Position numbers and translations under genes: made by a program
Origin: a virus
Length of the DNA stretch: 64,000 nt
Virus record (IMG/VR): IMGVR_UViG_3300029448_007456
Coordinates: 50,779 to 114,778 of that record
Direction: 5' to 3' (one strand)
The notes under the pieces: generated by a model
The model's input: the letters and a program-made list of their open reading frames with translations, nothing else
The model's database searches: none
Told to the model about the DNA's origin: nothing
Shown here: in pieces, positions 3,240-6,031 of the stretch
Layout: the number at the start of each line of letters is the position of its first letter
How positions within the stretch are numbered: the first letter of the stretch is position 1

Positions 3240-3754
3240 TATACTTTTAATTTAGCATAAGATTGTTGGACTGCTTGAGTTTGTGCCACAGCATCTGTAA
3301 GTGCATTGTGTTTGCCTTCTATCTTTACACTGACATCAGCAAGATCAAACAGTGTGCGTGTGTCTCTCACTTCCCAAAACTTCCAAGTGACTGCTTGTTG
3401 CAATGATCGACAGACATCTTCTATGATCACAACATCAAAAATTGCGCCATGACTCCACACATTAGAAGTGCCAAGGCCAAATGTATATAATTTTTTCATT
3501 GCATCTTTAAGATCAATTCGATCATCACCTTCACCGAATGCATCTTCTTGTATCTGTTTGTCTTGTTGGCTCCACCAACCAAGTGTGTCTTCATTGATCA
3601 CTCTGCCATAACTTTCTTGTGTTTCAAGAATAATTCTTTCATAATAGGTAGACTCTATATCTGTTGCATGTGGATCAAATCTACATGCTCCAATGGTCAA
3701 TATGGCCGCATTGGGCGATGTTGCCAGTGTTTCTAAATCAATCATTAAATGCAT
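3239..3754 (-). CDS. DEDDh 3'-5' exonuclease (DexA/DUF5051-like)
   Basis: HLMIDLETL, WSHGAIFD, RDTRT, HNALTDA motifs. Confidence 0.85.
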   Translation of the reverse strand: MHLMIDLETLATSPNAAILTIGACRFDPHATDIESTYYERIILETQESYGRVINEDTLGWWSQQDKQIQEDAFGEGDDRIDLKDAMKKLYTFGLGTSNVWSHGAIFDVVIIEDVCRSLQQAVTWKFWEVRDTRTLFDLADVSVKIEGKHNALTDAVAQTQAVQQSYAKLKV

Positions 3755-3790
3755 AATTTGAGTATATAAGGAAAAAAAGATACTGTCAAC

Positions 3791-4008
3791 ACTGCTTGGA
3801 GGGCCTTGCTATGAACTCACCCCCAACGTCCGGCTAGCAGATCACATCATCTCTATGAAGTTTAAATGTGAGCCTACTTCCAACCATCCCCTTGCAAACT
3901 TAGCCATTGGGCCATCTAAAACAAGGTCATGTGCGTTATCCCCCTGCCGAAGGATTATTCCGCCACAAGCTCTAAAAAGTTGCAACTAATTAGAATGCGT
4001 TGTTCAGT
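3791..4008 (-). ncRNA. candidate structured non-coding RNA (~218 nt), unidentified
   Basis: ORF-free, GC-richer intergenic block with own TTGACG-N16-TATTAT promoter and four stems with G-U pairs on the minus strand. Confidence 0.65.
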
Positions 4009-4014
4009 AATAGT

Positions 4015-4042
4015 ATAATAGCACTTTTATTAAATGCGTCAA
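4015..4042 (-). promoter_or_regulatory. sigma70-type promoter of the candidate ncRNA
   Basis: TTGACG (4042-4037), 16-nt spacer, TATTAT (4020-4015); same geometry as early promoters. Confidence 0.7.
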
Positions 4043-4114
4043 CCATATAAAAAATCATTGTTTTTTGCAGTTTTTTTGCCTGGAAAATCTTAATCCATAA
4101 ATATTTGACTTATC

Positions 4115-6031
4115 ATGCTTAATTTAGTGTTAGCACAACCTGGTTTCAGTTGGGGACCATCTCATCTGAATGCTCATTATCTTCCTTATTCAGTTGGTTG
4201 TTTGTGGGCGAAATGTCTAGACAATCAAACAATTGTTGAAAATGTTGAACTTTTAGACATGATTGCTGTGCGTGAAGATATTCAACACTTTGTTGACAAA
4301 TATGATAAAATTGATGTTATTGGTTTTTCTTGCTATGTTTGGAATTACAATTATGTCAATGCTTTAGCCAAAGCAATCAAACGCAAGTTTCCTGAGTGTG
4401 TTGTGGTTTTCGGAGGCCCAGAACCAGAACACAGTGATCAAGACATATTTGTCAATAAACCTTGGCTTGACTGTGTGGTGGTGCAGGAAGGCGAAGTTAG
4501 TTTTGAAAGAATTCTTGAATGCTTGATTACTAAAAAAAGTTTGGAAACAATTCCTGGATTGGTAATCAACAAACGGGGTCAAAGACTGGTTACACCCATA
4601 TCACAAAGAATAACTGATCTTGAGTCCTTGCCTTCACCCTACATCAAGGGCGTGTTTGATCATTTGTTTCACAAACACCCTGATATCACTTGGACAGCCA
4701 TAATGGAAACCAACAGAGGTTGTCCTTACAAATGCACATACTGTGATTGGGGTAGCCTCACATTAAGCAAGATCAAAAAGTTTTTGCTGGACAAAGTGGA
4801 ACAAGAAATCAAATGGATGAGTGATAAAAAAATAGACTTTGTTAACATAGCAGATGCCAACTATGGCATTTTCAAAGAAAGAGATTTAGCCATCACACGA
4901 CTATTTGGCAAATATAGATCAATCACTGGATGGCCAAAAGCAGTCACAACCAATTGGACAAAAAATGCCAAGAAGCATGTGTTGGACATTGCTCAAGAAT
5001 TCAAGGATCAAGGCATTGCAAACAGTGTGACAGTCAGTTTACAGAGTCTACACGATGATGTGTTGGATGCTGTTGAAAGGAAAAATTTTGAACTCAACAA
5101 TATCGAAGAAATGTCCATGGCTTGTTTTGAAAAACAATTACCAGTGGCTGTTGATTTAATTTTGGGATTGCCTATGGAAACAAAAAAATCTTGGAGGCAG
5201 ACATACTACAAGTTATTTGATCTAGACATTCATCAAGATTTTTACACACATCAAGCCATGCTGTTGGAAAATGCACACATGAATCAAAATCAATTGCATC
5301 AGTATGGTATGGAAAAATTTACAAGGCCCATCAAGTTTACTGAAGACAATATGCAACACACTGAATACGCAACCTTTGTCAAAAGCACAAACACAATGAC
5401 GTATGATGATATGATTGACTGTGCAATGCACACCAATTGGATTTATGCTCTGCATCACACTGGCCTAAGTTCTGAGCAGAGCAAATTTTTGCACAAACAC
5501 AGCGGGATACCTTATGCAACTTTTTACAATGGTCTGATTGAATTTTTGTTGCAACATGATTTTATGCACAATTGTTATCAGCAAAGCGTTGAGCAAATCA
5601 AGATGTCCTACAGTGATATAAACCAACCCACTTTGGAACAAATTGACCTTAGCCTAAGTGGTGAGTTTAATATACTTGAATGGAATATTATTAATAAAAA
5701 GATTGAAACTGATATACAAAATTGCATCAAAGAGTTCATTGACACACGATTTACAATTGACAAGGATCTAGTTGATCAGTTGGACGTATATGCACAACTC
5801 AGTTACTTGACATTTGAAAATCATACGAAGTTTGATCAACTGTCACATGAATTTGATTATAATTTTTATGAGGTCAACAATTTAAATGCTGACATGGCAA
5901 AAGGCAAACATACATATGTTTTTAAGAAAAAGTTATCACAGACTTTTGAAAACACTGTGGACTATGCAAATTACATGATTGTGCGAAAACGTAACATTCC
6001 TTCAAAGAACATCATCACACAACAAGATTAG
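4115..6031 (+). CDS. B12-binding radical SAM protein
   Basis: GFSCYVWN and GGPE cobalamin-binding N-domain; ETNRGCPYKCTYC; TAAATA box at 4098-4103. Confidence 0.9.
   Translation: MLNLVLAQPGFSWGPSHLNAHYLPYSVGCLWAKCLDNQTIVENVELLDMIAVREDIQHFVDKYDKIDVIGFSCYVWNYNYVNALAKAIKRKFPECVVVFGGPEPEHSDQDIFVNKPWLDCVVVQEGEVSFERILECLITKKSLETIPGLVINKRGQRLVTPISQRITDLESLPSPYIKGVFDHLFHKHPDITWTAIMETNRGCPYKCTYCDWGSLTLSKIKKFLLDKVEQEIKWMSDKKIDFVNIADANYGIFKERDLAITRLFGKYRSITGWPKAVTTNWTKNAKKHVLDIAQEFKDQGIANSVTVSLQSLHDDVLDAVERKNFELNNIEEMSMACFEKQLPVAVDLILGLPMETKKSWRQTYYKLFDLDIHQDFYTHQAMLLENAHMNQNQLHQYGMEKFTRPIKFTEDNMQHTEYATFVKSTNTMTYDDMIDCAMHTNWIYALHHTGLSSEQSKFLHKHSGIPYATFYNGLIEFLLQHDFMHNCYQQSVEQIKMSYSDINQPTLEQIDLSLSGEFNILEWNIINKKIETDIQNCIKEFIDTRFTIDKDLVDQLDVYAQLSYLTFENHTKFDQLSHEFDYNFYEVNNLNADMAKGKHTYVFKKKLSQTFENTVDYANYMIVRKRNIPSKNIITQQD

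Follow-up and report, generated by a model that had tools for sequence, protein, structure and literature searches.

The DNA analysed here, referred to below as the window, is a stretch of 64,000 nucleotides from a 114.8-kb IMG/VR virus record (IMGVR_UViG_3300029448_007456), the completeness of which is estimated by CheckV at 34%, indicating that it comes from a large uncultured phage. A 360-nt intergenic gap (3755-4114) separates two divergent genes, one encoding an Rv2179c-like 3'-5' exonuclease on the minus strand (3754-3239) and the other a B12-binding radical SAM protein on the plus strand (4115-6031), for which a search for relatives gave none. AdoCbl-II riboswitches (58 bits) were also observed at L006:2347-2439 and L009:2347-2439 (minus), just upstream of more distant exonuclease homologues and on the opposite strand; together with the B12-binding neighbour in the window, they fit a B12 theme of these phages.

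The block within the gap has a GC content of 0.44-0.49, compared with 0.26-0.40 in the flanks, and the promoter scan of positions 3650-4200 returned two sigma-70-like sites in total, both on the minus strand. The upstream one (4015-4042) consists of TTGACG (4042-4037), a 16-nt spacer with an extended TG, and TATTAT (4020-4015), and predicts an RNA 5' end at about 4009-4007; the downstream one (3761-3789), TTGACA-N17-TATACT, precedes the exonuclease gene. Both promoters and the GC-richer block had been pointed out in a preliminary description of this DNA, which proposed a structured non-coding RNA of ~218 nt, transcribed on the minus strand from its own promoter. The proposal is borne out by homologues, compensatory base pairs and a promoter at a fixed distance; the RNA is now placed at ~4008 to 3781 on the minus strand, i.e. 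at ~228 nt, so that its existence stands while its 3' end has moved.

No Rfam family reached its gathering score over the RNA, and blastn found nothing similar to the gap among 50,697 GenBank phage records. Neither ARAGORN nor Rfam matched a tRNA, tmRNA or RNase P in the RNA block, in agreement with the earlier remark that such signatures are lacking; a sub-threshold fragment of the tmRNA model (12.2 bits, 4018-4077) covers the promoter and the spacer upstream and lies outside the RNA. The calculated fold energy of the gap block is -69.2 kcal/mol for the minus strand (z = -1.66) and -42.3 kcal/mol for the plus strand (z = +1.13), and this preference, as well as the G-U pairs, agrees with the strand assigned in the preliminary description. 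Since z is only -1.66 against shuffles, however, the folding of a single sequence is not convincing alone.

Homologues and secondary structure

Viral contigs were searched with a pattern of the conserved arm, GTGGCNGAATAA-N(10-30)-TAANGCAC, which was found in at least 120 of them; mostly the gap forms a hairpin of variable sequence with the pairing kept, and the two N positions of the pattern covary. A pattern based on the P9 loop gathered the subfamily of the window RNA itself, comprising 21 distinct close homologues from uncultured marine phage contigs with a mean column identity of 82%. This subfamily pattern was present in 42 metagenome contigs, Tara Oceans scaffolds among them, and had no copy in 185,579 prokaryote species genomes, which hence offer no clue to the host. 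A covariance model built solely from the subfamily, R1, found one copy only in the 114.8-kb record.

In the alignment of the 21 sequences, a manA-like structure has its partners paired in 97.9% of pair cells, and compensatory changes occur in 20 of the 49 pairs, against 0-5 pairs in slid controls, in which the partners were shifted by 1-3 columns. Covariation among homologues, named as a check in the preliminary description, is thus present. In a wider alignment of 52 sequences (A3), the corresponding values are 95.5% of cells and 43 of 49 pairs; this alignment, like A4 and A5, was fitted to a model, and the pair counts taken from it, including those given below for individual helices, are therefore inflated.

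The outermost helix, P0, closes the RNA: its 5' strand (3997-4009, minus strand), UACUG-AA-CAACGC, pairs with GUGUUG-A-CAGUA (3792-3781), the duplex with the 3' tail having a calculated energy of -12.2 kcal/mol. In relatives, P0 is formed by quite different sequences (AACAACUAAC/GUUAGUUGU, CUACACAC/GUGUGUAG and UUCAACUGC/GCAGUUGAA). It is followed by the P1 hairpin (3971-3994, minus; P1/L1 of the cryo-EM preprint discussed below), the apex of which, AGUUGCAACU with its core at 3986-3979, is self-complementary; compensatory changes are seen in 7/7 pairs of P1 in A3. P2 (5' strand GCUUG, 3966-3970, minus, paired with CAAGC at 3798-3794) is the closing stem of a multi-helix junction, with compensatory changes in three of its five pairs in alignment A2 and in four of five in A3, and aligns to the junction-closing stem of the Rfam manA family.

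Within the junction, the first arm (3931-3964, minus) is the most conserved module of the RNA. It is composed of P3a (GGCG/CGC), the internal loop M1 (GAAUAA/UAA; GUGGCGGAAUAA..UAACGCAC in the window) and P3b (UCCUUC-GGCA-GGGGGA), and the pair flanking M1 is seen as G-C, A-U, U-G, U-A and C-G in A3. The P4 domain (3885-3931, minus) is one long hairpin of 47 nt with the pairings CAU/AUG, CCUUG/CAAGG and GGCC-CAAU-GGCU. P8 (3827-3883, minus) has an outer stem UUGG/CCGG, an internal loop AAGUAGG/UCUGCUAG, an inner stem UCACAU/AUGUGA and the loop L8. An alignment gap kept its outer stem out of the pair count; inspection of alignment A2 shows that it covaries, being UUCU/AGAA and UUCG/CGAA in a sister clade. 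The last arm, P9 (3799-3824, minus), is a GGGGG/CCCUC hairpin with compensatory changes in 5/5 pairs (A3) and a near-invariant loop L9, UGAGUUCA..GCAAGG.

The preliminary description had drawn several of these helices correctly: GGCG/CGC enclosing UCCUUC/GGGGGA, CCUUG/CAAGG, UCACAU/AUGUGA and GGGGG/CCCUC are all supported by covariation. Two of its stems did not hold, both being in the wrong register and lacking compensatory support: for UUAG/CUAA, covariation favours GGCC/GGCU instead, and in AGUAGG/UCUGCU the changes are one-sided only. As for the terminal pairing of ACUG (4008) with CAGU that it had suggested, a CAGU is indeed the partner, but not the one at 3794-3791, which likewise lacks compensatory support: in the covarying P0 the partner lies 9 nt further downstream.

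Two segments, UCUGCU in the P8 internal loop (3836-3841) and GAGUUCA..GCAAGG of L9 (3804-3819), are invariant throughout the 21-sequence subfamily, and no covarying partner for UCUGCU was found there. This hexamer is complementary to GGCNGA of P3a, a pairing proposed by RNAalifold as an alternative, and the complementarity might point to a tertiary contact or to a second possible fold. As a secondary-structure element it was rejected and the local P3a stem preferred, since UCUGCU never changes, whereas N and the base proximal to UAA covary with four pair types.

These data also bear on whether there is an RNA gene here at all. The block lies between divergent genes, as a regulatory region acting at the DNA level could, and contains short ORFs on both strands, one of which (47 aa, 3985-3842) might encode a small protein. 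The latter reading was rejected, as each homologue checked has several stop codons within the 47-aa ORF. Substitutions in the helices are compensatory, the G-U pairs and the fold energy favour one strand, and the element moves as a unit among different gene neighbourhoods; we consider a locus devoid of an RNA gene extremely improbable.

Kinship with manA RNA

The manA motif has been known since 2010, when it was rated a probable cis-regulator upstream of varied genes (Weinberg et al. 2010, PMC2864571). A permissive Rfam scan aligned positions 3789-3992 of the minus strand with positions 1-192 of the manA model (RF01745) at 16.7 bits and E = 0.047, the gathering threshold of the family being 55.2 bits; when the whole phage record was searched with the same model, no match was obtained at E up to 10. 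The alignment retains the junction nucleotides GUG.C.GAAUAA, UAA.G, GCC (before the 3' strand of P8) and UUG.GGGU, while the closing stem, GGGAG/CUCCC in the manA consensus and GCUUG/CAAGC in the window, is fully compensated, as is the first pair of P3a.

The distance between the two is bridged by intermediates. A locus of the sister clade (L126) scored 22.9 bits with the Rfam model. Among 20 loci found by the conserved-arm pattern, two exceeded the threshold (79 and 77.9 bits), 13 more gave full-length sub-threshold matches of 23-52 bits, and one lay inside a ROOL RNA. Conversely, R1 gave full-length matches of 40-88 bits at loci scoring 28-52 bits with Rfam manA. Among loci scored with both models, all of which had been preselected by the M1 motif, the R1 and Rfam manA scores were 61.8 and 51.9 bits for the L139/L167 type, 60.9 and 49.6 bits for L147, 62.3 and 44.1 bits for the L121/L185 type, 26.7 and 77.9 bits for L160, and 17.9 and 79 bits for L135; L155, which carries a chance copy of the motif only, had no R1 match. 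R1 alone did not match the manA RNA of cyanophage P-SSM2, which itself scored 181.6 bits with the Rfam model.

Since the intermediates score well with both models and the chance-motif locus is unmatched, the window RNA is, as judged from its sequence, a divergent member of the manA superfamily despite its sub-threshold Rfam score. The label "unidentified" given to it in the preliminary description can no longer be kept in view of the shared helix order and junction nucleotides and of intermediates with 44-62 bits in both models. The same description had held that a match to a known family would end the claim of novelty, and such a match has been found in substance, though below the Rfam gathering score. 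Hence we are not dealing with a new kind of RNA but with a relative of one that was described in 2010 and has remained an orphan "riboswitch candidate", and the family is extended to large uncultured marine phages. It also follows that most of the family escapes the Rfam model, as just 2 of the 20 tested loci reach its threshold.

Transcript ends and the downstream gene

A promoter of the GGTTGAC..TATATT type was found at the same distance from the RNA in all 15 of the 15 subfamily loci examined; it is of the sigma-70 type and early-looking. At the other end, the 3' region (3772-3798, minus) contains the 3' strand of P2 (CAAGC), the 3' strand of P0 (GUGUUG-A-CAGUA, 3792-3781) and then UC followed by seven U residues (3780-3772), and overlaps the -35 element of the exonuclease promoter. 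U-rich tracts follow P0 in several homologues as well. The transcript would thus have its ends near 4008 and 3781. No canonical hairpin terminator was found for the RNA locus, and transcription may therefore read through into the exonuclease gene.

Such read-through is the basis of a different explanation, in which transcripts starting at 4008 enter the exonuclease gene and the RNA serves as a cis-acting 5' leader or riboswitch that senses a metabolite or tunes expression, stability or promoter occupancy. The overlap of the P0 3' strand with the exonuclease -35 and the missing hairpin terminator are compatible with it, as is the position of the RNA directly upstream of a same-strand ORF, both here and at all subfamily loci (in several homologues the ORF starts just 6-24 nt past the RNA). 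The rating of manA as a probable cis-regulator points in the same direction, and so does the P-SSM2 manA RNA, the end of which is separated by 15 nt from an ORF for purine synthesis, annotated purL. The exonuclease gene, however, has a promoter of its own, rated 11/12, and its ATG (3754) lies 6 nt past the -10 element, so that the mRNA is leaderless and offers no ribosome-binding site to sequester. In relatives that lack the RNA at this place (L001, L002, L004 and L005), a TTGACA-type -35 and a TATACT/TACAAT-type -10 can be read from the alignment just upstream of the exonuclease gene. Upstream regions were inspected at 80 loci of exonuclease homologues, of which the closest have coding sequence or a different region and no RNA directly there; in the nearest relative (L003) the RNA is located ~1.15 kb upstream of the exonuclease gene, with a radical SAM gene in between.

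Nor is there a constant downstream gene. Within the subfamily the RNA is followed by genes for the exonuclease, radical SAM proteins, ClpP or unknown proteins of 330-344 aa or ~140 aa, which are unrelated to one another, and many of these genes are preceded by a sigma-70-type promoter of their own or by a box of the ATAAATA type (late-type as read by eye). In other clades the RNA precedes tRNA genes and not ORFs, lying 5 nt before tRNA-Pro in L108 and 75 nt before tRNA-Gly in L129; elsewhere it occurs within tRNA arrays (L086 and L150) or immediately follows a phage tmRNA (L092, L144 and L170). An expression platform (terminator, anti-terminator or sequestration of a ribosome-binding site) and a conserved class of downstream genes were looked for and not found for the window RNA, and P0 makes the RNA self-contained.

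Some of these loci have features of their own. The tmRNAs are located at L144:2088-2521, L092:1064-1547 and L170:4005-4392, with the manA-type motif ~10-60 nt further on, on the same strand, and then tRNA genes; their tag peptides end in ..FVGADYAVAA or ..ADEATFA. At L112, L204, L205, L267 and L271, a second GGTTGAC..TATAAT promoter appears ~30-150 nt after the RNA (e.g. L205:390-495), followed by a conserved leader of ~100 nt, UGUUAGCAGUACAUCAGGAAGGUGUACA..UUGCUAUCA..GGCAAU, which may be another structured RNA, and by the ORF of 330-344 aa, for which no Pfam match was found.

Because of the fixed promoter, the covarying P0, the exonuclease gene's own promoter, the varied neighbours and the tRNA/tmRNA contexts, we read the window RNA as a stand-alone unit. 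It shares with phage cis-regulatory leaders, such as the AdoCbl-II switch of the same phage, the position of a structured RNA upstream of a same-strand gene; it differs from phage riboswitches in having no expression platform, in being followed by a leaderless gene with a separate promoter, and in lacking a conserved downstream class. It probably does not serve the exonuclease gene as a riboswitch, a view already taken in the preliminary description on account of the leaderless promoter, and a leader function in the wider sense appears quite unlikely to us. The same observations provide genomic evidence that manA family members are stand-alone, promoter-driven RNA genes.

Loop complementarity and comparison with cage-forming RNAs

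According to a cryo-EM preprint of July 2026 (10.64898/2026.07.01.735769), manA RNAs assemble in vitro into RNA-only structures, namely octamers, decamers and an icosahedral cage of 60 subunits, held together by L1-L1', L5-L7', L8-L9' or L3-L8' and GNRA-receptor contacts; five of the five manA RNAs examined oligomerise, and the preprint is silent on manA biology. The signals for such contacts were sought in the present family. In 34 of the 35 members without a GACG loop, the L1 apex is self-complementary over at least 4 nt, and in 20 over at least 6 nt, as assessed against a weak control, a composition-preserving shuffle. The palindrome itself changes from clade to clade: about ten different ones were seen (UUAUAA, AAUUAAUU, UGAUCA, AGCU, GAUAUC, UUGCAA and others), that of the window RNA being GUUGCAAC. 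This pattern suggests selection for an L1-L1' contact, which would produce it, although a palindromic apex could also merely lengthen the P1 hairpin.

Complementarity between L8 and L9 is distributed less evenly. In the sister clade the two loops are complementary over 6 nt, CCUUGC/GCAAGG (-10.3 kcal/mol), and other clades have CUUGAU/AUCAAG and CUGAUU/AAUCAG; in the window RNA and in L003 an L8-L9 kissing complement is absent (-4.0 kcal/mol). In the window RNA, AAACU of L8 is complementary over 5-6 nt to AGUUU in the 3' internal loop of P4, and the equivalent in the sister clade, AAACC/GGUUU, differs from it by one compensatory change.

Taken together, we consider it probable that the locus encodes a discrete, stand-alone RNA of ~228 nt belonging to the manA superfamily, which most likely joins to itself through loop-loop contacts. 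A sigma-70-type promoter would set its 5' end at ~4008, and P0, followed by the U7 tract, would join this end to the 3' strand ending at 3781, enclosing the 5' hairpin and a four-armed junction, in which P3 with its GAAUAA/UAA loop is followed by the single P4 hairpin, P8 and P9. The RNA would be a product in its own right and would not act as a leader for the exonuclease mRNA. In analogy to the manA RNAs studied by cryo-EM, its copies would associate through loop-loop contacts, the best candidate being the self-complementary apex of P1, and it may have a role in infection.

The evidence of structure and promoter would be the same for a stand-alone RNA that remains monomeric and builds no cages, for example one that binds proteins as a decoy or scaffold or that exists as a processed or circular RNA. 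The lack of L8-L9 complementarity in the window clade would be in line with this, and the near-invariant L9 (GAGUUCA..GCAAGG) and UCUGCU could be sites of protein binding or of tertiary contact. However, all five manA RNAs in the cryo-EM study oligomerise (10.64898/2026.07.01.735769), and the self-complementary L1 apex is retained across clades despite the change of its sequence; a purely monomeric RNA is in our judgement unlikely. For the self-joining RNA, a broader picture may be put forward tentatively, as one possibility among others: manA-type RNAs, the compact form closed by P0 among them, would be a very large, mostly uncatalogued class of early-transcribed phage RNA "capsomers" that form cages in infected cells, with the self-complementary L1 apices as two-fold joints; they may have in common with ROOL a modular core made up of the GAAUAA/UAA and P8-P9 arms, and perhaps also their ancestry; P0 and the U tract would mark off a unit that is released and possibly circularised; and downstream tRNAs or mRNAs would, in some phages, be tethered cargo.

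ROOL and GOLLD are phage-encoded RNAs of unknown function that form cages free of protein and often lie beside tRNA genes (Kretsch et al., 10.1101/2024.12.08.627333). When positions 3700-4160 were searched with the ROOL model (RF03087), no match was obtained at E up to 10, and R1 matched the 5' 200 nt of ROOL only at E = 0.006. The Rfam ROOL consensus does contain stretches, AAGUAG and GGUAAuCAAUCC, like those in P8/P9 of some manA-like RNAs (e.g. L158). Separately, the ROOL RNA found among the pattern loci (L132:4086-4584, 110 bits), which adjoins tRNA-Asn, carries an exact manA-type module, GUGGCUGAAUAA-hairpin-UAAGGCAC, at 4108-4141. The likeness between manA and ROOL may reflect either modules held in common or a common ancestry. 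The GAAUAA/UAA loop is similar to the recurrent UAA/GAN motif, so its presence in both need not mean common descent.

With the known manA RNAs, the window RNA has in common the order of the helices (5' hairpin, closing stem, P3a-GAAUAA/UAA-P3b, middle domain, P8 with its internal loop, P9), the stacking of P9 on the closing stem, the occurrence in marine phages and a sigma-70-like promoter just upstream, as in cyanophage P-SSM2, where TTGACA-N17-TATAAT stands before a 5' hairpin and a junction with several arms. It differs in having an extra covarying closing helix (P0), a palindromic L1 apex in place of the GACG loop of the consensus, a P3a shorter by one nucleotide on the 3' side, a separate promoter after the RNA, and a single P4 hairpin instead of the four-way junction P4-P7 of canonical manA. 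According to the preprint, the P4-P5-P6-P7 junction is present in most manA members and is lacking in the variant 6FAB (10.64898/2026.07.01.735769), which in this respect resembles the window RNA. The compact form closed by P0 and devoid of the four-way junction, found in large marine phages, is thus what is particular to the window RNA, along with the clear signs that it is a transcription unit of its own. As regards ROOL and GOLLD, these are two to four times longer than the window RNA, whereas the tRNA context typical of them is shared by other manA-like clades.
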